From the NCBI GenBank assembly GCA_965649765.1, contig OZ287756.1:33852001-33916000 (forward strand): 64,000 nucleotides of DNA, given 5' to 3'. The notes beneath the pieces are model-generated. The model was not told the DNA's origin and made no database searches. It saw nothing but the letters and a program-made list of their open reading frames with translations. Origin of the DNA: Bispira polyomma (taxonomy: Eukaryota). How positions within the stretch are numbered: position 1 is the first letter of the stretch; each line of letters starts with the position of its first letter. This document shows, piece by piece, positions 12,968 through 55,523 of the stretch. Both the position numbers and the translations under genes were made by a program.

Positions 12968-12970
12968 TAG

Positions 12971-13970: not shown

Positions 13971-14141
13971 AATAATTTTAAACTTTTTATTACTTTACAT
14001 CTTATCTGTACATGTACATATATACTAACGTGTAAAAAATAAAATCCTCAAACAGAGTTTCATTGACTTATAAATTCATTCCAACAAACTTCTTTGGGAA
14101 TCATCTTAACTTATTGCTTTCACATCTTAGAACTTGGACTG
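13952..14141 (+). repeat. E1 repeat B1 (190 bp)
   Basis: Matches 15639-15709 + 16206-16324. Confidence 0.92.
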
Positions 14142-14350
14142 TGCACAACACGACTACCCTAGGGGTCTGTTAGTTCAGTCCAACATAAGATTTATCCAAC
14201 CTTAAAAATTTTAGGTTACACATAACCTTTATTTTCCTGTTTATGTGACAACCTCCAATCAAATTCAAGCTTAGTCACCCATGACCGCTCCCCTCCATTC
14301 TCTTAGCATTATTTACTCGAGATTTGAACGAGCAACACAGACATTTTGAA
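14140..14350 (+). repeat. E1 repeat A2
   Basis: Direct copy of 8618-8828, abutting B1 at gac-TG-tgc. Confidence 0.95.
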
Positions 14351-14799
14351 CCCACCACCTCCCCTTACCACAGCAGAGTATATGTGATTGAGGGACAGCT
14401 TAGGGGCGAGTTGAGCCTTGTTCGTGTCGCGTTCGGTTCCTGCTTCCATAAACTTACCTTTGGCGTGGCTGCCAAAGGAATTCGGAGCTCTGCGAGCAGG
14501 GACCGGCCGGGGCTAGGCGAGTCGGTGCCGCAGGTCCGGGGTTCAATCCGTTCCGGGCTGGTTGATTGCCTTCCAATATTGTAGTTGGAATTTGGTATGG
14601 TTTATCGTAGTTCATTTGTACACTTCTTTGAAAAATTTTGAGTTTCCAGAGGGATCTTACTCATTCCATTGTTATAATAAGGCCAAGTCACCCATTGCTT
14701 GACCTTGTGAATTAGGGATAACTAAGTTAGGGGTATGGCTATGTTAATGGTAAAATTACTGGTTTAGTTACATCTTATCCCTTCCTTAAGGTTATTCCT

Positions 14800-15086
14800 C
14801 ACCTACAGGACGTAGAGTAATATAGACTGACTCTAGGGTAGCTGGGCACTCTTAGGCTGTCGCTAATGTCAGAAGTTCGCTTCAAGTACTTCAATAAATG
14901 ATAAAATATACTTATAAACTGCAGTGCACTAGTATTGCTAAAAATACAAAAATTTAACAATTTAGATTCGAACACCATTTATTTTCCCTTTTTCCCACCT
15001 ACAGGATGTAGAGTAATATAGACCGGCTCCAAGGGAGCTGGGCACTCTTGGGCGGTCGCCATTTTTAGAAACTTGCTTCAAGTATT
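14800..15086 (+). repeat. ~92-bp direct repeat pair in the E1 spacer (14800-14891, 14996-15086)
   Basis: cacctacagga.gtagagtaatatagac...gctgggcactctt.ggc.gtcgc occurs twice. Confidence 0.85.
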
Positions 15087-15410
15087 TAAAAATTGCTGGA
15101 TATGTAGATGATGTATGTGATTATAAATATGTGTAATTAGTTGTTTTAGTAAGGCAACTTTATTTGAATGGCCATGATTATGGCTTGATTATTGCCCAGT
15201 ACAGGGGTAATAATGTTTATTCTAACAATCAGTTTATGCCAGGTTTATGGCCATGTACTGGGTTATGAACTAGTTCGCTAGTATGTTCAGGGGAAAAGAT
15301 TCGGTTAGGCATTGCCTTATGGATATATAACACACCCTATGCTTCTGTTATGTCAAAGTCGAGTTATAATGGGGCTAGTCCCTCAGATTTTAACGAAGTT
15401 ATTTTAATTA

Positions 15411-15558
15411 TCTTAGTATACTATTATTATGTTGCTGGTAGTAATTACTTGTATAAACACTATATAACATTATAGTATTATGTCTTAGTATACTATTATT
15501 ATGTTGCTGGTAGTAATTACTTAGATAAACACTATATAACATTATAGTATTATGTCTT
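15411..15558 (+). repeat. 72-bp tandem duplication
   Basis: tcttagtatactattattatgttgctggtagtaattactt... occurs twice. Confidence 0.9.
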
Positions 15559-15638
15559 GCATACATGATCCTACTGTATTATTTGATGAAGGGATCTTAA
15601 TGTTAATATTCTATGTTATTGGCACGGCACTTGTTAGC

Positions 15639-16324
15639 GGGTGTCAAAAAATTTCAAAATAATTTTAAAATTTTTATTACTTTACATCTTATCTGTACAT
15701 GTACATATAATCTAATCTAATCTAGTTGTACTTTTATAGCGCTTAATCTTTGTACAACAAATTCTAAGGCGCAACAAACCCAAAACGTTAATCGAAAATT
15801 AAAAATAGTGGGCGGATGGAAGTCGTAACCAGGGAGACTACCGTAAATGGTTGCGACGGCTAAGGTGGAAAAGCCTGTTCAAAAAGATAGGCCTTCAGCT
15901 TACTCCTGAAAGAGGAGAAAGTTTGAGCCAGGCGAACATGATCAGGTAGGCTGTTCCAAATGAGGGGGCCATCATGAGCTAGGCAGTGATTGAACTGAAC
16001 TTTGGATTTGTGGATGCGAGGGTCGAAAGTGGGAATGTTAAGGTATATTTTATCAGGGTTACTGCGCCTTGTCCTGACTGAGCATGCATATTTGGATAGA
16101 TGGGGGCTAAAATAAGTGGGTAATCCAGAATTTAGAAATTTATATATTATTGTTGCTGTTTTGAAAGCAACACGATATTTTATTGAGAGCCAGTGTATAC
16201 ATATATACTAACGTGTAAAAAATGAAATCCTCAAACAGAGTTTCATTGACTTATAAATTCATTCCAACAAACTTCTTTGGGAATCATCTTAACTTATTGC
16301 TTTCACATTTTAGAACTTGGACTG
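15639..16324 (+). repeat. E1 repeat B2, split by a LINE insertion
   Basis: 71 bp + 119 bp reconstitute the 190-bp B repeat. Confidence 0.9.
15710..16197 (-). mobile_element. 5'-truncated L2/CR1-clade LINE with 8-bp TSD tacatata
   Basis: Minus strand encodes HWLSIKYRVAFKTATIIYKFL...WNSLPDHVR; (TAGAT)n tail; TSD at 15702-15709 and 16198-16205. Confidence 0.88.
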
Positions 16325-16669
16325 AATTATACATCCCCACCAACCTGCCTGTGTAAGACATTACTATTTCTCCATATGAGACACTATCAAAATGTTACAC
16401 TTCTAGACTGTCTAACTACCTCATCCATCAGTAATTTCACTAGCAGCTACATGTTTGACATTACCTTTTACATAGTTTTCCACTCAGCTAGCCCATGTAT
16501 AGATTGGATAGAATCATGTACTTTTTCTAGCATCAGTTCCGCTCACGTCTGGCATCTAGCAGAATTTGGGTTATCATCATTTAATAGATTATAGGTTTGT
16601 CTGTATACATCCATGCCAGTCTTTATAGCACATTATGATTACTCTATATCATACTTGTTTTACTTCCAG

Positions 16670-16810
16670 ACAGTCCAGCTAAAACCTATGGCATTGGTTG
16701 TAAAAGTTGTTCAAAGCAGTGCAAAGATGCTGAATGTGAAAAGTACTTGGAAACAATGGAGTGTAGCAATGGGTGTGAAGCAGGATATACAGATAGTGAC
16801 TGTTCAGTGG
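16670..16810 (+). CDS. EGF-like exon 4 (paralog of exon 2)
   Basis: ttccag acceptor, g|gtcag donor, 141 nt; first Cys replaced by Ser. Confidence 0.8.
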
Positions 16811-17080
16811 GTCAGTGCTAGCCATACTTCTTCTATTTTAATACTCCCATAGCAATCAGTAAATAGGCTTATAAATAATACTTACAAACTACTTGTTCAA
16901 ATACGCTGTAAAACACAATGTAACCTCCAAGAGTACAGCGCATGCTAAATATTGGTCTCTTTTTTGGTAAATAACAGCTATACATATCTGCAAGTGCTGA
17001 TTATTTAATATATAATGACAAAATAAATAGTTTATTTGCACTTGACAGAGTTGTTATTGTACGGCATTTTATCACCACAG

Positions 17081-17221
17081 AATGCCCGGATAACACTTTT
17101 GGTATAGAATGTCAAGCCTGTTCTTCAAACTGTTTGATGACACAATGTGAGAAGTTTTCAGATACACTGGTCTGTACAGAAGGGTGTATAGCTGGTCATA
17201 CTGGGATTAACTGCTCATCAA
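17081..17221 (+). CDS. EGF-like exon 5 (CPDNTFGIECQACSSNC...CIAGHTGINC)
   Basis: ccacag acceptor, a|gtaag donor, 141 nt. Confidence 0.85.
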
Positions 17222-18157
17222 GTAAGTAGCACAACAGGGTTATAGCAAGTGGCTCGAATGGCCAACTTTGGGAATATTTACATAGTCGTGCTCATCTCTC
17301 TGCCAATTGTAAATGTCAGTATCCAAAGCATTTAGCACCTAAATGTTGTGTCCACAAACAGGTACAAACTGTACTGCATAGTGGACTACCTTATCATGTA
17401 CACACCATTATATTACTCACATATTTTCTTTCTATCTGGGTCTCTAGCTGGTAGTTTCCATGATAAATTTACCAAATAATAGTAATTGATACTAAACAAC
17501 TAAATGAGTGTAAGGGAAGAAGTTGTGTTATGGGGCTAGGACTCACCTCTAATCATTATTGTCGTAGATTTAAAACAAGGTCATGGCATCTACATGAAAA
17601 AGTAGGCAGTTGCTGCAGACATATGGTTTATAGAGCAAAAAGCCAGACATACCCCCTTTTACCACCCTTCAACTACCAGTAAACTGCTCATCTTTATATA
17701 TCATAAGCATATGGAAAGGGATATTCAACTCTAAATATAAACAAAATTGAAAGCAGTACTAAAAATTAATAAAAGAAAATAGAATGACTATGAATGTGGC
17801 AATTTATGGTTCTATTTTCTTTGGAAATCTTTACTGGACATAACTAGTGGACCCCCAGTTTAAAAAGTCCCCTGCAACCTATGTATTTATTGTAGCCAAT
17901 AAATCCTATATGTAAGCCTATATGTCTTACTACAGTACTTTGGTGATCATAGAGGCCAGGTCTGTAGTTAGCAAATACTATTAAAGCTATTAAATTTAAA
18001 GTGCACCATATGGTGTGGTTTTGTGGATTTCTAACATACACATCACGTTTTTTTTCATATAAGCCTTACAACACCAGCTGTAAAATTGTGGTCACTTCAT
18101 TCAACTGAATCTGAAATATCCTTTGTGTAAGAATGTATATTGTGTGTTACTTTTCAG

Positions 18158-18298
18158 CTTGCCCGGGTGATACATATGGCATTGGGTGTCTGGCTTGTTC
18201 AGAGCAATGTAAAACTCTCAAGTGTGAAAAGTTTGTCGAGGTACTTCAGTGCACAGATGGATGTACCCCGGGGTACACTGGAGAGAGGTGTCAACAGG
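18158..18298 (+). CDS. EGF-like exon 6 (CPGDTYGIGCLACSEQC...CTPGYTGERC)
   Basis: ttttcag acceptor, g|gtaag donor, 141 nt. Confidence 0.85.
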
Positions 18299-18984
18299 GT
18301 AAGTGTCAATAGGAATATTGACCCTTGACTATTGTATAAAGGTAGCCTCTTGTCAGAAGTGGTATGTTTAAAAGGTTGATCTCTATGAAATGACTGTATT
18401 GTTCTTCGAAAATTAATTTTAGGTACTTTCCAAAATAAACTTGAACATAAGAAAAAACAAACATTTTTAGTGATAGTTCAATTTATATAGATCTCCAAAA
18501 TAAAACATGGCTCATAATAAATATAAATTGGAACAAATTTCATTGAAAAATGTTTTTGGTTCTGTTGTACATGTATATATTGCGTTTTTGGCCAGATGGC
18601 CAATGATGGCCATCTAGCTTATAGGAGAGGGGGGTGTATATATGGAAGAATTTGATGAAATATGTGTCCACAACGTAATGTCTGAAACTATAAACAGTTG
18701 TCACTTCATATTTACAGAATATGTTTGGCATGGTCTGTAGATGTTTTAAAATGATTTTTAGAATCCTGTGGGTGCTACTTTTAAAGTTATAAGCCAAAAT
18801 GTACTAATTTCAAGGGGGAATGGGGGGACTGTACAAACTACAGCTTGGGAGCCCACAACTACAAACACACAGAGGATACTCTTACCATTTGTGTGTGTTG
18901 TGGGAGGCACTTATTTATACACACACAGAGAAAACTCAGGGGGGGGGGGAGTTTTATATTTATTGAATCATCTATTGTCAGTTT

Positions 18985-25408: not shown

Positions 25409-26416
25409 ATGGCTCCAGTATATAAATGTTCTAAGTGTCAGGGCAACCACGGAAGGCCTGTGGGGGCTGTTTGCACAAATGAAGCTGTGGTTGTTGAGGT
25501 AGCTGCTGGTGCCGTTTCGTCTGAGGATTCATCCGTTCCAGTCATAAATTCTAGTTTGGAAGCAAATGTTTCTAGTCAAATCTTACTGCAACTGCAATCT
25601 ATGTCACAAATGATGGAACGGATGGATCAGTGAGTTCAGCAGACAGAGGCGGCACTGGCAGTGGACAAAGCTCAGGCTAGTACTAGTTCTAATTCCAGTA
25701 TTTCCGGTGGTTCTGTGAACAGTGTTAGTAGTGAAGGGTTAACCTCCGATAGTATAATCCCAGGTGTTGAATTCCTACGCAAAAATACCTAGATACAAAG
25801 CCAAGTAAAAATAAGGCTAGCGAAACTCAAACAATTGAATGAAAATCCGCAAGGTAAATTGAAATCACAAAGGGGGGGCGTTGATGTGGTATTTAAATGC
25901 GTGGTCGAATGGCCCCAAAACCATGCTTAAACAGGCAGCTTTAAATCCATACCAACCTACGACGATTTGTCTTTAAACCAGTGGGTATGCGGTTTTACCG
26001 GAATAATTCAAGAGGAAAAGTCCAACGAAATCCGTGAAATAATGCCCGATTATATGGCCAACTTAATGGAAGATGCAGAGGACTTCTCTTGGAAAGCTGC
26101 CAAAGCATGTCACGCCGTTGTGCTTACCCATATGGAGATGGACAAGGTCAAATGGTCGGATGTCAAAAAATTAGATAGATTTCGGAGGGCAGATGCCCAG
26201 CGACATATTGTTGGTACTGGTGCTACAAATGTCAGTTGCAATATCAGTAAATTAAATGTATCAAGCAAGCAGTCCACTGCTAACTGCAAAAAAGATGGTT
26301 TATGCAAGTTTCCTAACAGCCACAAAACGGGTAATACCTATTTCAAACACATATGTGAAACTTGTGGGGGAACTCACAAGACTAGTGCTTGTACTAGAAA
26401 AAATTAAAAAAACTGA
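25409..26416 (+). pseudogene. gag: E2 gag (in-frame stops at 25631, ~25790, ~25928, 26405)
   Basis: MAPVYKCSKCQGNHGRPVGAVC; QGKLKSQRGG; WPQ; PTYDDLSLNQW; KHICETC. Confidence 0.8.
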
Positions 26417-28880
26417 GGGGCCACTGCAGTTCTGGGAAACCAAGGTATTTGCAAGAACTTTTCACAATTCAGAGTTCACAGATTTCCATTTGTTTAATAA
26501 AAGTACAAGGGAAAGAATGCTTGCATACAGCAGGGGTACACGGGCTTCCTATTCATATAGTCAGGCGCTAAAATGTGTAAATAAAGCAAAATATGATGGG
26601 AGTATAAAAATGAATGTAAAAAGGTAAATGAATGCATGGGTAAAACTCGTGTTCAAGTTGATAGCAAAAAAGTACACAGCCGAGCTCCCCCACGTGTTCA
26701 TAAATTTAGAAGTGTAAATAATGTTAGTGAAACTTGTGTATCCTCTCTCCCTTCCACGCAACTAAAAGTCACAAACTGTTTGTCGGGAAACAATGCCAGT
26801 CCTAAGAATAGAAACACTAGTTGTAAATGGAGTCAGAAAAGTACTGAGGAGTCACGTTGGCACAATAGGTTTCAACCCCTTAGACAAACCATTGTTGCGT
26901 TGGGTAACAGCTATGGGGAGGTGGGGGAGAGTATTAGTAGTATGGTGACCCATAGAGGCCCTCAGAATTTGTTTTTAAAAATTATCAAATATGACAATGC
27001 TCCAAGACAGGATAATATTCCCCATGTAAAAACAAAAGTGGAAGTGGTGCCTGAGGACTCAGTTGTCTCTTCTGATAAATATGCTTTAGAGCTGAATCAA
27101 AAGCGTAATAAGCGAGATTTACTCGTAAAGGCTTTAACAAATGACACCCACATGCAATGGAACGAGCAAAACAATGTAGAGTACGGTTTCATACCCCTTA
27201 CCACATTGGGATGTAAAATTTGGGACAATGGGTCAACAGATCATGGGCTCGATATATTAGAAATGCATGCCAAACTGAGAGGGGATGGGAGGCCTAATTA
27301 CAAAGGCCTACAACTCGCTGTAAATTCTCAGCTACATGCTGAAAAATGAAAAAAGTACCTTGTTGACTATTTGGACTGGCAGCTGCCTCTGCTGGTAAAG
27401 TATGGCTTTCCCCTGGACGTGTGTAGGGAAGATATCAGTTAGTCAGATAACCCAAATCATAGTTCTGCTGAAAGTTTTCCTGAACACGTGGATACATATC
27501 TCAAAGAAGAATGTCAATTTGGTGCCATTTTAGGGCCTTTTCAGGACCCCCTATTAAAAACCTTCACTGCTCACCTATGATGACGTGTGAAAAATCAAGT
27601 TTTACAAATAGAAAAGTAATAATCAATTTAAGTTGGCAGCATGGTCAGTCAGTGAACGCAGGTGCTTCTGCTAACTCATATCTTGAAACTGAATTTATCT
27701 TGTCATATCTGTCCATCGATGATGTTACCAGGGAAGTCACTAAGCTGGGTAAGGGCTGTCATATCTTTAAAGTGGATGTGGGTAGGGCATTCAGGCACGT
27801 CCTCATAGATCCTGGGGACATAAATTTATTAGGTTTAAAAAGGAAACAGTACTATGTCGAAAAATGCCTCCCATTCGGATGCCAGAATGGCAGTACAATA
27901 TTTCAGCGTTTATCAGACGCGGTTAGATTCATAATGAAGACGGAAGGACACAATGTCCACAACTACATAGATGATTTTTGACCGTTTCACTCCCTAGTAA
28001 GATAGGTGACATTTATGTACATCTGCAAGCCCTTTTGCAGGAGCTCGGACTCACAGTGAGTCAGAAAAAGTTAGTTCCTCCCAGTACCCGGGTAATATGC
28101 CTAGAAATACTCATAGACACTGATAAGTTTACTACCTCTATACCCGGTGAGAAAATGGTCAAAATCAGACAAAAATGTGCCATTTGGCACAACAAGCAGT
28201 ATTGTACTAAGAAGGAACTTCAGTCCCTCCTAGGTTCCCTTTTATATGTTGCCAAATGCATAAAGTATGCTCAGTTTTTCTAAACCGGATGTTGCAGTTA
28301 GTTAGAGATAATCACAGTAAGACTAGGTTTCGTGTCACTGAGGATTTTGGGCGTGATCTCAATTGGTTCAGAAACTTTATGCAACAATTTAATGGGGTTT
28401 TCTTTTTCTCACATAAGACCACACATGCCCAAGTGGAACTAGATTCCTATTTAACTGAGATGGGGGGATCTGTGGCAAGGAGGTTTACAAGTTACAAATA
28501 CCTGAACAGATGACGACCGACAATATTGCCTCCCTTGAAATGGTAAATATTCTTGTGGCCCTGAAATTATGGTCTAGGGTTTGGAGGGGATGCAGAATCC
28601 TGTTTAAGTGTGACAATCAGGCAGTAGTTAGTATTTTAGAAACTGGGCGCACACAAGACCCCTTCTGGCGGCATACACCAGAAACATCTATATGTGGGCT
28701 AGTAGATTTGATATAGATATCAGAGTAATACACATATTAGGGGTTAAAAATAAAATAGAAGATATCCTCTCCCGTTGGGATAAAACCCGAAATAATATGT
28801 TTCTGCTGGCTCAATGGGCGGGCCCCGTTAAGTGGTTGCAAACTGATGATTCTCTACTGAAAATTGGCCACACAACATAG
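26417..28880 (+). pseudogene. pol: E2 pol (RT + RNase H), heavily disrupted
   Basis: YGFIPL, KYGFPLD, KVDVGRAFR, LPFG, NYIDDF, LQSLLGSL, KCDNQAVV. Confidence 0.88.
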
Positions 28881-36038: not shown

Positions 36039-37163
36039 TCATACAAAAGTATTGTTAACAATATATTCAATATTAATAAGATAATTTCTATTGAAGTCAC
36101 AAAGTCGTCTGTTTTTCTTAAATGTGGCAATTGCTTTTCTCAAACAATATATTGCTTCTGTTATGTTGTTGAAATTGAGCCTTTCAATACAGGTGTAGAC
36201 TGACCTAAAGTAACTCTGTCGAAATATATAGGGATATGTCGCATGAAGTAAGCTCACCCCAAATTCTTCTACATCTTTACACAAATAGGAAGTAACTTTC
36301 CCGTAATAATACATAGACTTTCTGAAGTTCCATACACAGGATAACAGCAGATACTGCTCTGGATAATGTTTAAAATACATGCAAAGTAAATCTTGATCAT
36401 CAGATGGTGATAGCTCTGTATGCACATCCTTACTACATTCTATCAGTGTCTTGATGAAGTCCAACTGTTTTAATTTCTTTATATCCATCAGCATCAAACC
36501 AGCATTAATGCCGTCCTTCACAAACAATTTTTCTCTCAATTTTGCATACCTTCCACCAACTGAGGTGGCTATGGTGTGATTAGTGCCAAATGTATGAAAC
36601 ACATTCCATAATTTCCAAATGTCATCTATAAGTACCATGTCTGCATCCATATAAATTAGTTTTGAGGTATGCTGAGCAATAAGCTCTGACTGAAATATTG
36701 CAACATAGGCCATGATTTTTATACTAATATGTTGTTGTTTGTCCTCCAGTAATGCTAAGTCTGATTTATTCAAGTATTCAATTTTATAGACATTTACTCT
36801 TGATTTGGTTTCCTTTGGCCACAACTGTATTTCTCCAAGTATTTTGTCAACTGAATCATCTTTGGTGAAAATATAAAAAAATACCCTTTTTTGGGTTGTA
36901 CATACTATTGACTTTATGAGAGTAAGTCCCATATTATAAAATTTCTGACCCATGATGGTAGTGGCAATGTGGACAGTTTCGTGTAAAGGTTTCATCGATG
37001 TCTTGCCCTGTTTGTGTTGTGCGGTGGTATTCTCTTGTTTGTCCACTACCTTGATGTTATTGTTGTGTAAATCATATTGGCTATAATTAAACAACATGTA
37101 TAGAGAAAATATCAGCATAGCTGCCCTACATAACATAACACCACTTAATTTGTTCTGAACCAT
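36039..37163 (-). CDS. GT8-family glycosyltransferase, glucoside xylosyltransferase (GXYLT)-like; type II membrane protein; intronless CDS
   Basis: N-terminal TM, TLIKSIV, DxD motif YMDADMV, GINAGLMLMD, DQDLL, LSCVWNFR, SLLH; ATG at 37163. Confidence 0.88.
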   Translation of the reverse strand: MVQNKLSGVMLCRAAMLIFSLYMLFNYSQYDLHNNNIKVVDKQENTTAQHKQGKTSMKPLHETVHIATTIMGQKFYNMGLTLIKSIVCTTQKRVFFYIFTKDDSVDKILGEIQLWPKETKSRVNVYKIEYLNKSDLALLEDKQQHISIKIMAYVAIFQSELIAQHTSKLIYMDADMVLIDDIWKLWNVFHTFGTNHTIATSVGGRYAKLREKLFVKDGINAGLMLMDIKKLKQLDFIKTLIECSKDVHTELSPSDDQDLLCMYFKHYPEQYLLLSCVWNFRKSMYYYGKVTSYLCKDVEEFGVSLLHATYPYIFRQSYFRSVYTCIERLNFNNITEAIYCLRKAIATFKKNRRLCDFNRNYLINIEYIVNNTFV

Positions 37164-39169
37164 TGTCTTCACAAATTATACATTTCTCTTCTGTGTAGGT
37201 GTTGTTCCTGTGCTGTTTCATTTTTACACAAACACTAAATGTATTGACAACTGTTATATGATTATATTACAAACAAATAGAGCTAAAATACAGTAGCTAT
37301 CCCAGATGTTTTATTCAATATATTTGTCAATATTATGTCATATATCATAATGCTTCTTTGAAATATTTGTTTCAAATTTCTAGGAAAAGAACATCACTTG
37401 TTGCAAATAACTTATCTTCATTGAATTTTAAAATTGATTTCAACTCACATCAATAGCTGGAAAAACAGTTGTCTATAAAGTTTATATTATCAGCAGCTGA
37501 ATTGTGATTTACCAACATTGTTAGTCTTTGTTTAGTGGAAAATATGATGTAATGCTGTGTTTTGTTGTTTTTCAGACATTTGGGTGAAAAGCAGTAGATA
37601 TGTAGAAGTTTTATGCTGACTTCAAAATCCAATCCAATTAAAGCTTAACTGAGAGTCTAAATAAAATTTCTATACATGTAGCATAATAATATTGGCTTAA
37701 TCAGTGGGAGCTCAAATGAGTAAGATTGCTCACCGATTATTGTATTGTACTTTGGATATGTGACCAGCCTTACTGACAGAGCATCTATGTGACAATATTA
37801 TTACATAAGGCATACCACTGGACACCAATGATACTTGAGCTGTGGTCTTCTTGTACTTCAGTACCTTGCTGCAGCATCCTTACATTTGACATATTATTTT
37901 ATTTCTAGTTGAGCATGATCTACATAATAATACTGATGTCATTTAATATAGTTATAGCGCAACGCATATTTTTTGAGGGATAGATCAAATAAACCAGATA
38001 TTTTGGGGGCAGAAATTATTATGATGATCTGATTCTGAAATATAAAACATACATCATTAAATTAATATATTCTTATATTGTGTTTTCAAACAAAAGTGTA
38101 CACACAAACTTGTGCAGAATTAATACAAAAATAATTGATTTTTTAAAAGTTATTCTACCTGTACAGAATGGACTGCTTTAAATTGGTTTCATCTAGAAAA
38201 TGCACATAATAAGTAGAACAAGTAGCATCATAGATGCAGCAACCCTATGGTTATGAAGCAAGATGACTATGCTTAAATTGAATAGTGGAAAAACCCTAGT
38301 TACTGTGATTAATGTCCAGATCCCACTGGAAAATTTACATCGCGAATGCAGCCGAAACCTAAAATTTGTCACAGTTGGTAGCCAATTCGTGCCAAGTCTT
38401 CTTTGTTTTCCATCCCGGTGGGGCTACTAGAATTTCAAAATGTTAAAACTCTCGTCATCACTCACCGTCATTTTCTTACTGCAAATTTGTCATGGTTGGA
38501 ATCAGTTATTTTGTAGTTGTAACTTTCTAATGGCATCATCATACAGACATTCACCTGTATCTCACCATTTCTCATCTATCTGTTTTTTTTGGAAAATGTC
38601 GACAATGTTTGTTTGGTAATACATTTACCCATTTGTATGGTGAATGCCGGCGAACGTCAAATATTACTAGTTGGTAGCCAATTTCTAGTGATTCTTCACC
38701 ATTCTAGTATTGTTCAGCCCTCGTAGTGGAGTCGGCTCTGTCATCGTAATTTATTGGTGGATAGTCGCCAACAAAAAAGAAAACAAAAAATGCCCCACCC
38801 TTTTTACGGAGAATGATCAAGAATCACTTCCCCATCATTCTCCAGCATTGCTAGTCATACTCGTAGCTCCCTCTCCGGAGTGGATCCTGTGCATTATTGT
38901 AATCGACTAACCAAATGTGGCAAAAAGAATATGACCAATCAGGTATAGTTAATAAAGATTACCTAAGGTACAAACAGTTGTGAAAAAACACCAAAACCAC
39001 ATGTAAAGCCAAGGTTTACATAAGGAGAACATGACCATGTAGGTAATTGGTATCTACAGAGAGATCACTGTGATAAGGCCTATTACAATTAAATACATGT
39101 CATACATTTTTCAACCCCAAATCAAGATATACTACATCAAGTTTACAATGTACTAAATGGACACATAAA

Positions 39170-39499: not shown

Positions 39500-40760
39500 C
39501 CATTTCCTTGCTTTTTTAAAGTTTTTACTATGGTTTTTATTGATTCTGTCCTGCCAGAACACATCACCTATTGGAGAGTTGTAATATTCCTTAAGTAAGG
39601 CTTGTTGAGCATATTTGTTCGAGGTATTCCCCTGTAGTATCTCCTCCATATCTTGCAACGCTGCCCCATTATACCAATCCACTTGTAGTACATTGTGCTA
39701 AGCATCTTCCCAGTCAAACAATTCCATGTTGTCGCTTTGGGATACCTCACTCTGTAAATGTTATGTAATATACAACACACTGTGGGGATCAGAGTAGCTA
39801 CTTCTGGCGCATGGCGTAACCTTCCCACTGAGGCACTTAAATCTGTTCCCGAGGAGCTTAAAAGCATATTTAACAATTATCCTTGCGTGGGACAGTAGTT
39901 GAAAATCTTCTATTTATAAGTTAATGCCCTATGTCCATATGGTTTCATCATATACTTGGATAACGTGAAGGGGGCCACGTTGGCCTAGTGGTTAGTGAGC
40001 ATTGCGCTTCACAATCACTGGTCTTTCACCTCTGGGCGGCGTGAGTTTGAATCCCGTCTATTCCTATGTGGGAAAGGTGTTAGTTCCTTACTGTGGGCCA
40101 CTGATTTCAGTGCAGAACCTTGATCAACTGTGTGCAGTGTTTCCTCCAGCGTTTCCAACTACCCGTCCCAATATAACCTAAACAGGTACTAGAGTGGACG
40201 TTAAACATCCAAATTAAAAAAAAAGGATAACGTGAACACGTCATCAAAGAAATAGGGCATGGGCTGATTATTACTGGCAAAGAAGTATCTTGTGGAAGTT
40301 CGAGTAAATCATCCCATGAGGCTTGCCTCAAGTAAGAGATATTTCAGATTTCGACATCAGAGCAGCAGCCATTTGCACCAAACATCGAGGTAGATAAACT
40401 TGTAGTCCAAATCCACCACGGCAAAAAGTATATTTGAAGTGAAGCAATTGTAGTTGAAGCACCATGATCCACTGTGAGGGGGCTTCAATAAGGAAACGTG
40501 TTTACCATCTATGGCACCAATACAATGGGAAAAATTCAGCCCTAAAAAGTCCAGCCCTAAAATTGATTTGGTATTCTTGATTTCAGGTGTTAGTCCGGTT
40601 CTCAGAAGAACAAAAGGATGGTCATCCTCAAGCTCCTCAAATAGTTGCTCATAAAATTTATGCAGTGGTCTCCTCAGGATACAGGGCCTTATCCACATAT
40701 GCCTCGGTCTTCTCTTTTTTCTGGCATTACCCAGCTGTTCCTGTTCCTCCAAATATTGAG
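39500..40760 (-). mobile_element. PIF/Harbinger (HARBI1-like DDE) transposase pseudogene, internally deleted and interrupted by a SINE
   Basis: CIGAIDGKH, PPHSGSWCFNY, LFAVVDLDYKFIYLDV, MKPY, CCILHN. Confidence 0.85.
39970..40224 (+). mobile_element. full-length tRNA-derived SINE with 12-bp TSD ggataacgtgaa
   Basis: A-box TGGCCTAGTGG, B-box-like GTTTGAATCCC, A-tail; TSD at 39958-39969 and 40225-40236. Confidence 0.9.
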
Positions 40761-41669
40761 TGGCATTAAAATATTTGCATGGCCTGTAATTGAACCACCA
40801 TAGACTGTTGCATTACGTGCAATTGCCGAAATACAAAGTTGAACACCATTGTTGAAGTTCACTGTATAGCTGAAAATATGGTGAAAAGCATTATTAAAGT
40901 AGAATAATGAGGAAATATGTATGACCTCCTAGTATATATACCCCAAGAAACAGCTGTAGAAACGTATCGTGCATCTAGGGGAAACATTCGAGACATAATC
41001 AATGCATGTGGGACGAAATAAAAATGTAAGCGACATAATGGAAGCGTGCTTGGAGCATCAAAGAAGTGGCTGAAGCGTAAGAAGCTTAGAGGAAAGTATA
41101 GCCAAATGTAAGAAACGTTTACAGGCTTAAGAAATAACATGTCTCGTGTCACAAGCGTATTCAAAATGGCAACCAAAAATCCAATTCCATGTGTGTCAGT
41201 ATGTGAAACAAGGAACAAACGGACTTGTGTAATGGAAACGTCTTAGACATAATTTGGGGCTTACGCTACAGGTTTAGAATTTGTTTTTGAGTCCTACTTT
41301 GTGCATAATTAATACCTACACATTACGTAAAATTTATTTTTTATTTTATTAAAAATCCACAAAGATTCCTGAATGTAGATCTTTCTCAATCACTGCTCCT
41401 ATCTTATAGAATACGCCTATTTTCGAAAACATATTTACCTTTTTAATAACTACAACCCACTAGGACCTCTTCAGGGGATTGCTAGTTCAGTCCACTATTT
41501 AAACTTTATGTCTTACTTCAAAGTTAATCCCTAGTGAATTCAACTACGTAACCCCTCTTTCTGTTAATAATTGAAAATCCATTTTATTTTATTAAAAATC
41601 CACAAAGATGCCTGAATTTAGAGCTTTCTCAATCACTGCTCCTATCTTATAGAATAGTGTCCTAGTTGA

Positions 41670-47022: not shown

Positions 47023-47248
47023 TGTTGTAGTCATTGCTCGCAAAGCATGGCTAGTCAGTCGTGAAGTTGTAATACCTTACGGTATTATATACTTACTTAA
47101 GAATTGTTTACCCAGATACACCAATCCTAGACCAGAACCTCTTTTACTTCACTACCAATCAAATCCCTTAGCTTTTAGTCAATTTCCCGCCTTTTCTCAC
47201 ATTTGGTCATTATTAAGTTGCAAGTTAATGTAGCAACACCTTGAAATT
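47023..47248 (+). repeat. E3 repeat A1 (226 bp)
   Basis: No difference seen versus 52547-52772. Confidence 0.96.
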
Positions 47249-47417
47249 ACATTGGAATCGGCAAATAGAGCCGCCATATTGGAAATAACTGTTTGCGTGT
47301 AGGGAAACAAGCTTATTTTATATTTATTAAACATTATTTTACCTTTTTGTTTAGTGATTTTAGTGAGTTTTAACTTTTCTCATCTTATAGTGTGCCTTTT
47401 GTGTTGGATATCTTATT

Positions 47418-48779
47418 ATGGACCGTGCGAAGAAGAAGACTGTGGCTTTGTGTTCACGCTGTAATTTTTCACATTCTCGACCAGTGGGTACTAGGTGTCG
47501 GCTGGCCATTTAAGACGCCACGTCGGACGCAGAAGCCAGCAGAGTTTTTTCTACTGAAGTCCATGGTGCAGACGTTGAAACCAGCACGCTCAACTCCGTT
47601 GCTGACTCGAGTCACATTTCTGAAGATCACGTGAGTTTTGGTCAGTTTTACAAAGACGTTTTCACAGAGCAGCAGTCTATGATGAAAACACTAGTGTCCA
47701 CGGTAGCTAAGTTACAGGAAGACGTATCCGACTTAAAGACGTCTCGTTCATCTTCCCCCCAGGTCTCGTCAACATCTCAGACAATTAGGCCTCAGAGGGC
47801 AGCTCCACCTAAGCTTCCAGCACCTTTTACACAAAACATGGGCTCTTCTTTACCATTTACTCAGAGCTTCCCTCAGCTTCAGAACCCGCCAGTGAATTAC
47901 ACAGGAGTCAACGATCTTCGTTCTCACGTTTCTCATGACACTTACCCGACACGTCACAACACTCAGTTCCCAGACACACGACCAGTTCATTTGCCACCTT
48001 AACGGGAGGGCTACACACAGGACCACGCTCAGAGGTCCCTACAGAATGCAATCCTGCCTACTCCAGATGTATTAAAGCAGTCCGTTATGATACAGAACGA
48101 GGTTTCACAACGATTAGCCCGTTACGAGGCGTGGGCCGCTGATGAATCGCTTCAAGGTAAGCTCAGTACTAAACGCAAATCTGGTCGCTACAATGTATCT
48201 GAAGTGTGTGTCACCGACCCAATGAAATGTTGGCCTAATGAAGCATGTTTTTCTGGTGTGAGTAAGAAACGAGTTTCTTATGATGAGCTTACTGTGTCAC
48301 AATTTGCTGCAGGTCAGTTGCAGAACATCTTAGAAGTGAGAAACCCTACTATTTCTCGCGCCATGTTAATCCAGTTAGCAGATACTTTAAAAGATGCTTC
48401 TAATATCTCCTGGCAGATAGCCAGAGGTTCGTATGCATGTAACATGCACGATGTGGAAGAGGGGCGCCTCAGCTGGGTAGACGAAACTAGGTGGACAATG
48501 AACCGACTGTCCTATTCCCAGGCCTTAATTTCGAACGGCGCATCTTCAAATTCAACTTCCTCGAATTCCTCCTCGGCCACCGGAAAGCATGAGATGCCAT
48601 GCAGGCACTACCAGAAGAATACGTGTCAGCATCAGAAAGACCATGAGGGCAACAACGCCATTTTTAAACACATCTGTGCCAATTGTTTTCGTTTGCATAA
48701 GAAGCACAATGCACATCCAGAATCCAAGTGTTTTAAACTTCACGGACGCCCCGCAGTGCCCGCAAACGCACCCCAATAG
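47418..48779 (+). pseudogene. gag: E3 gag with in-frame TAA at 47511 and 48000
   Basis: MDRAKKKTVALCSRCNFSHSRPVGTRC; ORF-track pieces 47631 and 48087 are in the same frame; KSGRYN, WPNE, CRHYQxxxCxH, KHICANC. Confidence 0.87.
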
Positions 48780-51371
48780 GGGTGCGGACTGTCGACAGTC
48801 ACCACAGCCAGTGGTTATATACAGTATGTTAAACCGGATGTCGAGACTGCAGAGCAGGAGCATTCTGAGAGCATGAACTTAAGACATGAGTATAATAAGC
48901 AAAATTTTGAGTTAGTTAATCAAAGGAACATTTTTATGTACAGTATGAGCTTTAGGGATGGACAGTTCTTAAATGATTGTTCTCGTGATGTATTCACGAC
49001 AGATGGACAAAATAACGTCTCGTGTAGTAGCAACTCCGCCTTATGTTCTGTTGGTCACAAGTTATGTCCACCAAAAGTTCATGGCAGTAGTAATTTTATT
49101 GCAACCTCATTTCTGGTTTATTTGTATAGTAGTCACAGTTATGATGTCCTTAAAGGCCCAGTGTATTATATTGTTTGTAATGCTGACTCCAGTGTCTCAG
49201 GTGCATACACTTGGGTTTTCTTTCAAGGTCAATGGTCTCTTCAGAAACATGACCTCTCTCTACAAAAAATGTGGCCCACCAGTTTGGTTTGCACAGGTTC
49301 TGTACCTGTTTTACTTAGAAACACTGCTTCATATACCAAGGTTCGACCTTTACCAAAACATAAGAAGGTCACCCATACCCGTACAAACATCAGTTCTTCT
49401 GATTATTATATTGCCATCATTGACAACATTTGTAGTCGAACCACTCAAACAACATACGACAAGCATATAAACGCACGTGTGGATGACAAGTTTCTTTCGC
49501 GGAACCATACAATAACTGAGGACACACATATAGTAACCAACATTCCACAGGACGTTGTATTACAGAACAGTGACATACAGCACTCCCCCATAATGGAAGA
49601 AATTGTGAATGAGGACATTTTACTTACTGACCAATGAACTTATGGCTTCATCCCTCACGGGAGAAACCATTTTAACTTCATAGGACCAGACAGACAACAG
49701 GTAGACTTGACTTCTTATGATAAGTTAATTGAAGTAGCTGATATCATAAAGACCACTAAGGTACCAAACTACAGACAAGCGCGTTTTCCCATCAAAAGTG
49801 ATCTCAATGTTCTCAATTGGAAGAAATACCTACTCGATTATCCGGATCAAATCGTTCTACAGTATGTAGAATTCGGGTTTCCTATATCTCTGTATGAGAG
49901 GGACAGATTGAAGGTCATAAATGTCAAAAACCATTCTTCCGCTATGGCATTTCCACAAGCCATTGACAAGTATTTCCTTACAGAAGTAGCTAAGGGCACC
50001 ATAGTCGGTCCTATTTCAGGAAAACTTCACCCGGATATACATTGCTCACCTTTATTAACAGTACCTAAAGATATTGATCAGCGTCGTTTAGTTCTAAACC
50101 TTTCTCACCCCCTTGGACAATCTGTAAATGATTGTACAATTAAAAATAAATATGATAACGTCGCTTTTAACTTAAGGTTACCTACCATTGATCAAATCAC
50201 TACCCGTATTATTGAGTTAGGAACTAAGGCCACCTTAGCGAAAGTGGACATCACTCACGCGTTTAGAAATTTAAGAATTGATCCTTTGGATTGTTTAAAG
50301 TTAGGTTACCTTTGGAAAAATAATTACTTCATTGATCTCAGTCTAACTTTTGGACTCACTCATGGCATGGCGGCCTTTATGATTATTTCTGATTGTATTA
50401 CTTACATTATGAGACAGAAAGGATATATAGTCTACAACTATATCGACGATTTTATACTCATTGAGACTGAAGATAAGGCTGCCTTAGCTTATACTACTTT
50501 GCAACAAATCCTAGCAGACCTAGGTCTCCCTATTAACACCAAGAAATTAGTTCCCCCCAGTAAGCGTGTAACTTGCATGGGCATCACTATTGACATAGAC
50601 CTCCAAACACTCAGTATTGAACAAACTAAATTAAACTCTATATTTGACACATGTTTGGAATTTAAATACTTGCATAAAGTACGTAAACAGAAGTACCAGT
50701 CACTACTGGGAAAGTTGTTGTACATACAGCGCTGTGTGAAGAATTCTCGGATATTCATGAATAGAATGTTAACGTTATTACGGCAGTCTACTAGTAGTAA
50801 AACAGTATTTTTGACAAGTGACTTTCATAAGGATTTACAATGGTTTTTAACTTTTCTCAGACAATTCAATGGTACAACTAAGTACACATACATGGATAGT
50901 TCACATGACGTGTCATTACAAGTCGACGCTTGTTTATCCGGAATCGGTGGCATATCTGGTTTAGAAGTGTTCAAAGCTCCTCTACCATGCGTCCTTAAAC
51001 AAACACTTTCCATTGTCCATTTCGAAATGGTCAGTATTCTCATAGCTTTCAAATTATGGGGTCACAAATGGAGTAATAAAAAGATCAAGATACAATCGGA
51101 TAACATGGCTGTGGTGTCTGTCGTACAGTCATCTAGAACCAGGGACGACTATTTAGGTTTGTGTTTAAGGAACATCTGGCAGATCTGTACCTTAAGGAAT
51201 ATTGACTTGACTATCAGACATATACCTGGCAAAGACAACATAATAGCAGACGCTCTATCTAGGTGGTTTGAATTAGACCATTTTGACAACACAATAAGAC
51301 AGGAACTCTTACACAACTTCATCATGCATGACATACCCATTGAATGTTTTACCTTAGATACTTATGTGTAA
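48780..51371 (+). CDS. pol: E3 pol: N-terminal extension, TGA at 49635, then intact RT + RNase H
   Basis: ORFs 48873 and 49707 are in the same frame; KVDITHAF, NYIDDF, VDACLSG, SDNMAVV, NIIADALSR. Confidence 0.9.
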
Positions 51372-52357
51372 TTTCAGATCCTTCTGACCCAGCCTCCTCA
51401 CTGATCAAAGGAGCTTTGAGACGGCTGAGACAAACTTACAGACCTAGGACACAAAGACAATATGACAGCCAGTTTAGACTTTTCTTGAGCTTCACAGTTT
51501 ACTTTGATTTAAAGGAAACCTTCTGCTTTAACAGCGTTATAGCTTTTTTGGAATTTATGACACAAACAGGTGTCTCGTACAAAGTATTGAGTAATTACTT
51601 ATCTTCCATTAGGCACAACACAAAAATTCTGAACATTCAGCAAACTGGTCTTTATGATCCTAGATTGCCATTATATTTGAGGTCATTACAACTCACTTCC
51701 AAATACACACCTCGGGTCAAAGGGGTTTTCGATTTGCACCAATTACAACAGATTTCACAAGCTTGTAGCCAGTTTCAATTTCCTGATTTATTCAGAACAG
51801 CTTTTTTGTTTGCTTATTTTGGTTTTTTACGCATTTCTAACCTGACCACCACATCAGGTCTCCCCTTTGATCCTACCAGACACCTGACAAGGGCTGACCT
51901 GTTGTTTGCCCCCCCAGGCATTCACCTCATATTAAAATGGAGTAAGACTAACCAAACCAGGAAAAACCCAGACATCATACAATTACCAGAACTTTCAAAC
52001 CCATGGCTCTGTCCTGTAAAGGCAGCCACTTCGCTATTTCACAAACACCCTCTCCCTCCTTCTTATCCATTACTGGCAAACCCACTAAATAAAGACCAGT
52101 GCCTCTCAGACTCTAGTTTAAGGCACACTCTTAGCTCTATCTTAACACAGTTAAAAATCCCAAAAGAGGGGCATTCCTTCCATTGCTTCAGGCGCTCAGG
52201 TGTCTCCTTGGCATTTAATGCTAATGTTAAACTTCAGCATATCCAAAAACACGGATGCTGGAAATCAGATGCTGTTTGGTCTTACCTTCGATCTACCTCT
52301 CATGCTTCCACAATTATTCCAACAACGTTCGCATCCCTCGTCTCTTCTACTTTCTAA
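51344..52357 (+). CDS. E3 tyrosine recombinase, intact
   Basis: FLRISN, KWSKT, HCFRRSG, HGCWKS, AVWSY supply the catalytic residues. Confidence 0.93.
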   Translation: MFYLRYLCVISDPSDPASSLIKGALRRLRQTYRPRTQRQYDSQFRLFLSFTVYFDLKETFCFNSVIAFLEFMTQTGVSYKVLSNYLSSIRHNTKILNIQQTGLYDPRLPLYLRSLQLTSKYTPRVKGVFDLHQLQQISQACSQFQFPDLFRTAFLFAYFGFLRISNLTTTSGLPFDPTRHLTRADLLFAPPGIHLILKWSKTNQTRKNPDIIQLPELSNPWLCPVKAATSLFHKHPLPPSYPLLANPLNKDQCLSDSSLRHTLSSILTQLKIPKEGHSFHCFRRSGVSLAFNANVKLQHIQKHGCWKSDAVWSYLRSTSHASTIIPTTFASLVSSTF

Positions 52358-52365
52358 TTTGGCTT

Positions 52366-52548
52366 TGGCATTTTAAAATTATTTCATCAAAAATAATTTT
52401 TTGTACAGTTGTATATAGAGACGAGTAGTTAGAATAAAAATTATCCCAAACAGCATCTGATTCCTCACTCTCAATAACTATGACCTTTAAAGGTCACACT
52501 TACCCTAGGACAACATTAGTTCAATGTCACTCACAACTTAAACGACTG
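52366..52548 (+). repeat. E3 repeat B1 (183 bp)
   Basis: Matches 53346-53528. Confidence 0.96.
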
Positions 52549-52772
52549 TTGTAGTCATTGCTCGCAAAGCATGGCTAGTCAGTCGTGAAGTTGTAATACC
52601 TTACGGTATTATATACTTACTTAAGAATTGTTTACCCAGATACACCAATCCTAGACCAGAACCTCTTTTACTTCACTACCAATCAAATCCCTTAGCTTTT
52701 AGTCAATTTCCCGCCTTTTCTCACATTTGGTCATTATTAAGTTGCAAGTTAATGTAGCAACACCTTGAAATT
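52547..52772 (+). repeat. E3 repeat A2
   Basis: Copy of 47023-47248, joined to B1 at gac-TG-ttg. Confidence 0.96.
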
Positions 52773-53345
52773 CCCACCCACCACTTTCCCTTTTACTGGC
52801 TAAAGTTAAAATGAATTTTAAATTTTTCGGACTTAGATGGAGCTCATTAACCATGTGGAAAGTCCTATCTCTTACCCCTCCTCTGAGTTCACGTTTAGGG
52901 TTCCAGGGTTGAAGAAGAGCTCTGTGAGGTAGGACTTTCTGCAGGCGAATAGGTGCCCAGCGTTTCGAGCTCCCATTCATTTTTAAATTTTAAAACAAAA
53001 TTCCTTAGCCAGTAATCACTAACTTAATTTTACTCTTCGGGACTCTGATATTCCGAGTTATTTTGTCGCCCGAATGCGTGGTTGACTTTAGTATACTATG
53101 TATGTCGCCTTTATGTGGTTGACTATATTATTATAGTACATTATCTTATGTCATTTGTCTTAGTATTATTGTTTATGTCCTACGTCTTATGTATTTGACG
53201 ATATATTTTATTTGTTGTAGTATTCAACTTTATGTCGCCCAATTATGTGGTTGGCTTTTATCTTAACACTTTACATACGTTCAGGGTTATTTTTACCCCC
53301 TTTCGTATTTTAGCCAGTTCTTGGTTCTTGTTCATGTAGCCATAA

Positions 53346-53528
53346 TGGCATTTTAAAATTATTTCATCAAAAATAATTTTTTGTACAGTTGTATATAGAG
53401 ACGAGTAGTTAGAATAAAAATGATCCCAAACAGCATCTGATTCCTCACTCTCAATAACTATGACCTTTAAAGGTCACACTTACCCCAGGACAACATTAGT
53501 TCAATGTCACTCACAACTTAAACGACTG
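53346..53528 (+). repeat. E3 repeat B2
   Basis: Copy of 52366-52548. Confidence 0.96.
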
Positions 53529-54394
53529 CTTTAAAAACATGCAAATAGTTAAATGTAAAATAAAAGAGCAGTGATCCCCCTTTTGATAAGGTCTATACTT
53601 GCGTCCTTGTAATGCCTCGGGCACGTTCGCGCATTAGTGCCTAGGCTTGTCTCCACAGTGCTCCTGGTCAGATTGCAAGATGTGAGGAACAACGACTATA
53701 CCACGACTAGACCCATTGGGATAGGGGTTATGTTTAGACCGACAGGGCCAAGACGGCAACACTCTGGATGTACATCATTATATAGCTGAGAGCATTGCTG
53801 CTGTTTTGTGTAAAAGTGCTTCTTTTTGTGTAAAGTGTGTTTTATTTAATATGTTGTCATTCCTCCACCTGTGTAATGTTAAATAGGGGATCGTATTTTT
53901 CGACCAATTAAGACTATTGCAAAATAGCTGGAATGGAAAATTTGTTCAATAAGAGACTTTTCAAAATGGCTGTCATTGGGTAGTAATCCATATACTTTAA
54001 AATGCAAATGATATTTTAATCCTACATTTTAATAATCTCAAAACTAAGTTTAAGAAGTGAACTTATGGTAACCTTAATCTAATTTCCTACCTTAATTTAC
54101 GGTTACCTTAAACTCTTTCATAAATCTGTTGTCACTTTATGCTCTACCTCAAACTAAACTGTATGTATAAAGTATTTGTTTTTTAACAAACCAAGTCAAC
54201 TAATGAAATATTTACCGCAATTGTTTACTGTGTTAAATACAAATAATTATATCAAAGCATATAGACTTGACACCGAGGAACTCTGTCAAATAAAGATCGG
54301 GTTGTATGATGTTCATAATCAAGAGAATAGTAGAGTTACGTGAAGTTCATAGTTGTGAAGGAACTAATAAACCATTTTTCACAATAAGTGTTAG

Positions 54395-55523
54395 TCAGAC
54401 AAAAGTATTATTAACAATATATTCAATATTAATAAGATAATTTCTATTGAAGTCACAAAGTTTTCTGTTTTTCTTAAATGTGGCAATTGCTTTTCTCAAA
54501 CAATATATTGCTTCTGTTGTGTTGTTGAAATTGAGCCTTTCAATACAGGTGTAGACTGGTGTAAAGTAACTCTGTCGAAATATTCCGAGGAAGGTCGCAT
54601 GAAGTAAGCTCACCCCAAATTCTTCTACTTCTTTACACAAATAGGAAGTAACCTTCCCGTTATAATACATTGACTTTCTGAAGTTCCATACACATGATAA
54701 CAGCAGATACTGCTCTGGATAACGTTTAAAATACATACAAAGTAAATCTTGATCATCAGATGGTGATAGTTCTGTATGCACATCCTTACCTGATTCTATC
54801 AGTGTTTTGATGAAGTCTAACTGTTTTAATTTCTCTAAATCCATCAGCATCAAACCCGCATTAATGCCATCTTTCACAAACAATTTTTCCCTCAATTTTG
54901 CATACCTTCTACCAATTGAGGTGGCTATGGTGTGATTAGTGCCAAATGTATGAAACACATTCCATAGTTTCCAGATGTCATCTATAAGTACCATGTCTGC
55001 ATCCATGTAAATCATTTTGGAAGTATGCTGAGCAACAAAATCTGACTGGAATATTGCAACATAGGCCATGATTTTCATACTAATATGATGTTGTTTGTCC
55101 TCCGGTAATGCTAAGTCTGATCTAGCCAAGTATTCAATTTTATAGACATTTACTCTTGATTTGGTTTCCTTTGGCCACAACTGTATTTCTCTAAGTATTT
55201 TGCCAACTGAATCATCTTTGGTGAAAATATAAAAAAATCACTCTTTTTTGGGTGGTAAATACTATTGACTTTATGAGAGTAAATCCCATATTATAAAATT
55301 GTTGGCCCATGATGATAGTGGCAATGTGGACAGTTTCATGTATAGTTTTCATGGATCGATTTACCTTTTTGTATTGTGCAGTGGTATTCTCTTGTTTGTC
55401 CATTAACTCAGTGTTATTGTTTAGCAAATAATTTTGGCTATAATTAAAAAAAATGTTTTGAGAAATTATAAACATGGCTGCCATGCATAATATAACAAAT
55501 ATCAACTTATTCTTCTGAACCAT
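54395..55523 (-). pseudogene. second GT8/GXYLT-like copy with a 1-bp insertion near 55239
   Basis: ORFs 55212-55532 and 54395-55180 align to the N- and C-terminal parts of 36039-37163; gtga versus gta at RV(F). Confidence 0.85.

Follow-up and report, generated by a model that had tools for sequence, protein, structure and literature searches.

How a retrotransposon with gag and pol in one reading frame, separated by a single stop codon, produces its polymerase is the question raised by a 64,000-nucleotide (nt) stretch of DNA from Bispira polyomma (assembly GCA_965649765.1, contig OZ287756.1, positions 33,852,001 to 33,916,000 of the forward strand), referred to below as the window. The window derives from an AT-rich assembly of 1.035 Gb and harbors three tyrosine-recombinase (YR) retrotransposons, E1, E2 and E3. 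A preceding interpretation made without database searches, here called the sequence-only reading, had proposed programmed readthrough of the gag stop in all three elements, stimulated by a local structure as in gammaretroviruses, together with a Gag-YR protein made by splicing. Our comparative analysis indicates that a UAG followed by G (UAG-G) is very probably read through to give Gag-Pol in the clade of E1 and E3, points to a predicted long-range helix as its likely stimulator in place of a local one, and removes E2 from the readthrough type.

The gag stop codon and the frame of pol

Since the window copies of E1, E2 and E3 are all damaged, the gag/pol question can only be answered on sister copies. 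In E1, frameshifts break pol and YR. The gag TAG (10320-10322) is followed by GGA CAA and by 386 codons open in the same frame, reaching motifs upstream of the reverse transcriptase (RT), and the first ATG is codon 55, in line with the stretch of about 50 codons lacking ATG described earlier. In E3, the TAG at 48777-48779 is followed by GGG TGC, and the first ATG after the gag stop is codon 32. The statement that E3 is open in frame into pol applies to its family and not to the window copy, which carries an in-frame stop at 49635-49637 and two further ones inside gag (47511 and 48000). At these three positions, none of the 29 other copies of the family has a stop wherever the site is present; the stops are thus private to the window copy, and the gag-TAG-pol arrangement is valid for the E3 family, in which 7 of 30 copies combine gag and a single TAG with a pol that is uninterrupted over 863 codons.

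The clade was searched across the assembly with a pattern that combines the splice donor with codons for KSGR(Y/F), which gave 1137 matches in the genome versus 0 with the reversed control and reveals a large expansion of the E1/E3 clade. On contig C1, 90 pattern loci were examined, namely the first 30 and a further 60 hand-picked for diversity from the next 70 rows. A gag C-terminal match was obtained in 81 of these, with a stop 6-13 codons past the match in 70; 9 loci with no such match and 11 with the stop outside this range were left out. The gag stop of the 70 sampled copies is TAG in 64 (60 with G next), TAA in 4, two of which immediately precede TAG-G, and TGA in 2. Together with E1 and E3, the sampled copies form 37 clusters at 80% identity, with a median pairwise identity of 60%.

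The RT was located in 42 copies. Pol is open back exactly to the gag stop in 15 of them, these being all sampled copies with an unbroken pol; none of the 42 pol frames runs into gag in another frame, and the remaining 27 are broken in between. Among the unselected copies, 51 of 64 have no stop within the first 50 codons after the TAG in frame 0; in the two remaining frames, this is true of 1 and 2 copies. There is no fixed start codon, since the first ATG after the stop lies anywhere from codon 8 to codon 117 (median 57) in the 51 copies that have one. The sequence-only reading had named a random frame relationship among family members as evidence against readthrough; as pol lies in frame with gag in the sampled copies, the relationship is clearly non-random. 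On this comparative evidence, readthrough of the gag UAG-G is very probable for E1, E3 and their clade.

Two other routes to pol can be weighed against the same data, and both fit them poorly. Pol might be expressed from an internal promoter, by reinitiation or by internal entry at a downstream ATG, with the shared frame as a relic of an ancestral fused open reading frame (ORF). A promoter at the junction of Candida Tca2 (PMC2194720) is a precedent, ATGs occur in the linker of 51 of the 64 copies, and the third-position excess among linker variants of the E3 family is weak (3.3% vs 4.1%). However, the codons before the first ATG are kept open across families with unrelated linkers (the 51 of 64 given above against 1 and 2), the position of the ATG is unconserved, the stop is nearly always TAG-G in an AT-rich genome, and the corresponding junction of a sister lineage bears a -1 frameshift signal, which makes this route improbable. 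Even less probable is a further spliced RNA in which the stop is bypassed, with TAG/G (slash, splice junction) or a nearby AG as acceptor. TAG/G does match the acceptor pattern YAG/G, and the elements possess strong splice signals, but the TAG has no upstream T-rich tract (17% T, as against 52% at the YR acceptor described below), a phase-1 donor joined to +4 leads into a frame with a median of 13 codons before the next stop, and splicing would require neither frame 0 nor a conserved stop. TAG/G was disfavored as an acceptor on the first two of these grounds.

A predicted long-range helix downstream of the stop

The perfect 14-nt palindrome which the sequence-only reading had noted behind the E3 stop is indeed present (48787-48800), but it is not a conserved hairpin. 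The window holds 17 perfect palindromes of this length, a palindrome of 10 nt or more follows the stop in 2 of 36 family representatives, and that of E3 is private to E3. No local fold signal was detected after the TAG (mean z +0.47, 0 of 29 clusters at z <= -2, mononucleotide shuffles). The local palindrome hairpin was therefore rejected as a gammaretrovirus-like stimulator. A compact local pseudoknot is likewise not indicated, as the 29 clusters show no fold signal under a model that does not cover pseudoknots and the covarying partner is distal. Counting the T of TAG as +1, nucleotide positions +13, +16, +20, +21 and +22 are conserved among 36 cluster representatives, in spite of variation in the amino acids that they encode. 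A motif of the tobacco mosaic virus type, CARYYA, was rejected, since these conserved C, C, CA and G columns are explained by pairing to Val/Leu codons far downstream.

The conserved structure appears to be a long-range helix, in which the 5′ arm begins about 8 nt past the UAG and the partner consists of RNase H codons 2.2-2.8 kb downstream. For the partner search, the best match of +10..+35 was scanned along each element. It falls into pol in 18 of 20 full-length elements, at codons for D-N-x-A-V-V-x-V-V of RNase H, and into the 3′ spacer between repeats A2 and B2 in 1-2; this spacer had been the first guess from E1 and E3 and was rejected on that result. The E3 palindrome makes up half of one arm of the predicted helix, and the earlier caveat that E1 has no obvious hairpin is answered by the presence of the long-range helix in E1.

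The helix was tested on 29 clusters with both arms; an intact D-N motif was found in 40 of 56 copies, and the other 16 were left out. The RNase H window ranks first among some 309 in 27 of the 29 clusters; the corresponding counts for four control segments are 0, 0, 1 and 2. Cognate arms average -24.3 kcal/mol versus -14.2 kcal/mol for non-cognate arms, with 0 of 100,000 permutations as good, and the cognate advantage also holds inside each of two subclades (0 and 14 of 100,000 permutations). Natural RNase H codons outperform synonymous recoding at p <= 0.05 in 26 of 29 clusters. The distance from the stop to the D-N motif is 2,170-2,787 nt in 28 of the 29 clusters and 909 nt in one internally deleted copy. 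In this copy (L213, copy L129), which is possibly a non-autonomous derivative, both arms lie 909 nt apart and pair strongly. Within the E3 family, 0.4-0.6% of the cells in the arms are variant (0.43% in the 5′ arm) compared to 2-3.6% in the flanks, the copies not being independent.

Covariation supports the same pairing. In 21 clusters, the pair at +17 is T-A in 8, A-T in 8, G-C in 4 and G-T in 1 and is thus formed in all of them; +20 is C-G in 15 and T-A in 6, +22 is G-C in 16 and A-T in 5, and +14 is A-T in 10 and G-C in 7. According to the column counts, the Watson-Crick swaps fall at wobble positions. When mapped onto a 27-row RT tree, changes in the two strands of the helix fall on the same branches, with 5′/3′/pair changes of 6/6/7 at +17, 4/4/4 at +22, 2/2/2 at +20 and 2/2/2 at +12, and of 5/5/5 at +18 and 3/3/3 at +24 in the second subclade. 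The true register has 86% and 88% paired cells and 22 and 17 coincident changes in the two subclades, as compared to 21-57% paired cells and 2-13 coincident changes in slid registers. Copies L179, L126, L128 and L129 were omitted from individual analyses. Pairing rises from 2 of 21 and 1 of 7 at +9 through about half at +10/+11 to 20 of 21 and 7 of 7 at +12; the registers of the two subclades differ by a 1-nt bulge, and both start at +11/+12. Judged from these comparisons, the pairing of the arms is almost certainly under selection, and we regard the predicted junction helix of the UAG clade as a real, selected feature.

Predicted frameshifting in E2, predicted splicing to YR and distant relatives

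In E2, the codons AAA AAC TGA GGG are present at 26408-26419 as described in the sequence-only reading, but the element cannot be counted as a readthrough case, since a -1 frameshift signal is found in its family and deletions account for the apparent shared frame. The window copy has a TAA at 26405-26407 just before these codons and several stops after them, and it lacks 13 + 10 nt that are present in most sister copies; restoring them puts pol in the -1 frame relative to gag. The slippery A-AAA-AAC, formerly listed as a caveat, is part of the frameshift signal. In sister copies, A AAA AAC occurs with TGA or TAA and, 2-4 nt past the stop, with a GC-rich hairpin, of which the window copy has lost the 3′ half. 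In 23 loci with the motif (32 examined), the heptamer is A AAA AAC in 21 and A AAA AAT in 2, and a local hairpin of -13.5 kcal/mol or better is found in 10 of 13 elements of this type. Raw stop counts in frame -1 versus frame 0 (28 vs 23) do not separate the frames in these old copies, so the -1 call is based on indel accounting, a shared peptide and the signal itself. The E2 family is thus predicted to be of the -1 programmed frameshift type, with an X XXY YYZ heptamer and a 3′ stem 5-9 nt away. The RNase H helix is missing from E2-type elements (best partner in 0 of 8). In the literature searched, no -1 frameshift signal is reported at the gag/pol junction of YR retrotransposons.

The splice proposed to produce Gag-YR is well supported by comparison. 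In E3, the predicted intron 48157-51377 joins Gag to YR in frame, and the YR exon has no regular upstream ATG. Of 31 elements, 29 have a phase-matched YAG where the pol stop meets YR, in most cases at a distance of 9 nt from that stop; conservation of the donor was built into the search pattern by design. Three sequencing runs, made up of contigs with the even coverage typical of DNA, contain no Gag-YR joint, a result that has no bearing on splicing. The signals and their phase thus back this part of the sequence-only reading, the splice itself being one that we infer. E2-type elements have the same donor and acceptor signals (acceptor in 10 of 12) and no helix, which means that the splice layout can do without the helix.

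Beyond this genome, homologue searches returned proteins at most 57% identical to its families. Of 12 metagenome loci, 7 match RT-RNase H at nearly full length, and 2 of these 7 begin inside pol. In four relatives (L241, L243, L246 and L247) the gag match ends in a single in-frame TGA before pol, and in a fifth (L242) an in-frame gag-TGA-pol is probable. Their pol proteins are 38-40% identical, the base after the TGA is G, C, C, T and C, and the RNase H helix is present in none of the five. A scan of viral contigs found no relative. As far as the compared sequences indicate, the in-frame gag stop extends beyond this genome, and the helix is so far confined to the UAG clade.

These results bear on the main rival to a stimulatory helix, according to which the UAG-G context alone would suffice for readthrough and the helix would serve in shielding from nonsense-mediated decay, tuning of the Gag-YR splice, packaging or reverse transcription. 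Both arms are intronic, with the 3′ arm about 250-270 nt ahead of the acceptor, the TGA relatives manage with no helix, and free evolution of the sequence past gag begins with the 5′ arm, which could partly explain the position of the arm. Yet E2-type elements, with the same splice signals and an equally long post-stop region, have no helix, and the arm starts at a constant distance of 8-9 nt from the stop, in spite of the roughly 1 kb of fast-evolving linker in which it could lie. We consider this other role unlikely and an action of the pairing on readthrough probable.

Domain content and repeat layout assign E1 and E3 to the Ngaro-like YR retrotransposons (Table 1). E3 gives Pfam matches to RVT_1 (E 1e-9) and RVT_3 (E 2.5e-4) and a weak, below-cutoff one to Phage_integrase (E 0.017); RT and RNase H matches and a weak YR match are common to E1 and E3. 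No integrase or protease Pfam match was found in E3. Both split-repeat pairs (A1-ORFs-B1-A2-B2) were seen in 20 of 42 elements examined, and all 20 full-length elements have an A2-B2 spacer of 86-1,848 nt (window: 52773-53345 and 14351-16197). In 14 of 19 elements, folding of the first 400 nt of the spacer is stronger than that of mononucleotide shuffles (z <= -2.7), and the spacer of E3 contains a 266-nt long hairpin (z -2.6). Pol ends 90-91 codons past the D-N motif in 22 of 29 clusters, with no methyltransferase domain after RNase H, and no methylase Pfam match was obtained on E1 or E3 pol. PAT-like YR retrotransposons share the split direct repeats and differ in the methyltransferase; some PAT lineages have lost it (PMC4157794), which leaves some room for a PAT-like identity. 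Papers on Ngaro-like elements (order DIRS) describe overlapping ORFs, with all reading frames overlapping in Xenopus Ngaro (PMC9210276), whereas gag and pol abut in frame across a TAG here. The E1/E3 clade further differs from the Ngaro-like elements described there by a YR that has no regular start codon and by the A2-B2 spacer. YR elements lack a protease (PMC3783388).

Table 1. Coordinates of features of E1, E2 and E3 in the window (slash, predicted splice junction).
Feature	Position	Strand	Remarks
Element E1	8618-16324	+	A1 8618-8828, B1 14015-14141, A2 14140-14350, B2 16198-16324
E1 gag stop TAG plus G	10320-10323	+	TAG in 27/30 family copies
E1 5′ arm core	10331-10342	+	predicted to pair with 12712-12723
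E1 3′ arm core in RNase H codons	12712-12723	+	predicted to pair with 10331-10342
E2 slippery heptamer A AAA AAC, TGA, 5′ half of local hairpin	26407-26433	+	predicted -1 frameshift site
Element E3	47023-53533		split direct repeats A1...B1-A2-spacer-B2
E3 repeat A1, left end	47023-47248	+	100% copy of 52547-52772
E3 gag-like ORF1, ATG to TAG	47418-48779	+	private stops 47511, 48000 in window copy
E3 predicted splice donor CAAG/GTAAG	48153-48161	+	phase 1; intron from 48157
E3 gag stop TAG plus G	48777-48780	+	predicted readthrough site; TAG in 28/30 family copies
E3 pol frame	48780-51371	+	~290-codon fast-evolving linker, RT, RNase H; private stop 49635; first ATG 48873
E3 5′ arm of predicted helix	48787-48810	+	duplex with 51106-51130, -43.9 kcal/mol; contains palindrome
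E3 3′ arm of predicted helix	51106-51130	+	RNase H codons past D-N motif (motif start 51096)
E3 pol stop and predicted splice acceptor TAATTTCAG/	51369-51377	+	intron end 51377
E3 tyrosine recombinase exon	51378-52357	+	H-x-x-R and Y motifs readable in translation
E3 right end	52366-53533	+	B1 52366-52553, A2 52547-52772, structured spacer ~570 nt, B2 53346-53533

Elsewhere in the window, E3 lies between two similar glycosyltransferase family 8 genes, 36039-37175 (-) and 54395-55237 (-), which are 18.4 kb apart and consist of long uninterrupted ORFs (Pfam E 1e-16 for the first). A degenerate ORF at 40357-40812 (+) looks, by its motif, like a fragment of a Harbinger/IS5-type transposase. Cys-rich exon-like repeats at 5100-6130, 7960-8010 and 16500-18300 (repeat families D5, D8 and D19) suggest a host gene with duplicated exons that was interrupted by E1.

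Proposed mechanism and comparison with known systems

From the observed frame, stop identity, complementarity, covariation and splice-signal phase, a scheme emerges that we hold to be likely as a whole, with UAG-G readthrough stimulated by a helix of kilobase range. Most ribosomes would stop at the UAG and release Gag. While the UAG occupies the A site, the helix would be positioned at the entry channel for the mRNA, like the pseudoknot of murine leukemia virus (MuLV) and the stems of alphaviruses, and would favor a near-cognate tRNA at the UAG, giving Gag-Pol. The product Gag-linker-RT-RNase H of about 1,300-1,450 amino acids would stay an uncut fusion, because there is no protease in E1/E3-type elements. 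Removal of the predicted 3.2-kb intron would take out the stop and both arms and yield Gag(N)-YR.

Several points weigh against this scheme. Readthrough, the helix in cells, its stimulatory role and splicing are deduced from sequence, and only two-strand energies underlie the predicted pairing across 2.5 kb of an mRNA under translation. The helix data come from one genome and mostly one contig, and the 3′ window was discovered in the same data later used for testing. The permutation test of cognate and non-cognate arms ignores relatedness, and the single-column tests of independent pairs cannot reach significance, as they hold just 1-4 pairs per column. The relatives with an in-frame TGA show that the helix is not needed for the gag-stop-pol arrangement in general. 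Finally, the junction sequence of Candida Tca2 (gag-UGA-pol) alone gave no readthrough in yeast and contained a minor promoter (PMC2194720). This failure of a junction-only reporter illustrates why a distant partner matters for the assay. If the scheme is true, readthrough would be missed by the usual reporter of the stop plus 80 nt, a false negative with possible relevance to unexplained cases like Tca2.

A more speculative extension, which we think rather doubtful, treats the pairing as a sensor. Readthrough would then occur only while the element's own RNase H region is present, unspliced and untranslated; each ribosome reading through would melt both arms, resulting in negative feedback on Gag-Pol, and splicing would remove stop and switch together, so that one pairing would set the ratio of Gag, Gag-Pol and Gag-YR. 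Three interchangeable solutions for the junction would follow, namely UAG-G with a long-range helix, UGA with no helix, and a -1 frameshift with a local hairpin.

In the literature as far as seen, which describes overlapping ORFs, the expression of RT and recombinase of YR retrotransposons is unsettled. For these elements, the scheme outlined above, in which readthrough would give Gag-Pol and splicing Gag-YR, is complete and testable in a clade with more than 1,000 motif matches in one genome, and it offers dozens of natural compensatory variants with the partner inside conserved RNase H codons. No readthrough or long-range helix in YR retrotransposons is reported in the literature searched; in-frame stops may be mentioned in Repbase entries, in Gao et al. 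2003 and in the reviews of Poulter and Goodwin. From Tj1 and Tca2, readthrough is already known to occur in retrotransposons. The fungal long terminal repeat (LTR) elements Tj1/Tosmo/Tcry1 and Tca2 also have one in-frame stop between gag and pol, but they are LTR/integrase elements with UGA and a short context motif, and the available sections describe no long-range helix (10.1101/2022.12.06.519325, PMC2194720). What appears to be new is the predicted, covarying helix of kilobase range, with its partner hidden in RNase H codons.

MuLV produces Gag-Pol through UAG readthrough at a level of about 5%, with a pseudoknot located 8 nt past the stop (PMC8310308, PMC3159437). The E1/E3 clade has in common with it gag-UAG-G-pol in one frame and a predicted structure about 8 nt past the stop, and it differs in that no local stem was detected, the predicted partner is 2.2-2.8 kb away and there is no protease. 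Extended stems with 8-12 nt spacers raise alphavirus readthrough 3- to 14-fold, and the stems of alphaviruses, tobra-, furo- and pomoviruses and Drosophila kelch (Firth et al. 2011, PMC3159437) resemble the predicted helix in the 8-12 nt spacer, a stem of 11-14 bp, a 1-nt bulge, two coding arms and compensatory changes. Their loops are about 100-270 nt and their stops mostly UGA, whereas the span here is roughly 10 times longer, the stop is UAG-G and the carrier is a retrotransposon. In tombusviruses, UAG readthrough to the polymerase is tied to a pairing of proximal and distal readthrough elements (PRTE-DRTE) over about 3.5 kb (PMC5893793). There, 6-7 nt connect the bulge of a local stem-loop to a hairpin in the 3′ untranslated region (PMC5893793), unlike in the E1/E3 clade, where the long-range pairing would be the whole stem of 11-24 bp with a coding partner. 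Stimulation of readthrough over kilobases is documented in plant RNA viruses and, if the scheme is true, would here be at work in a nuclear retroelement.

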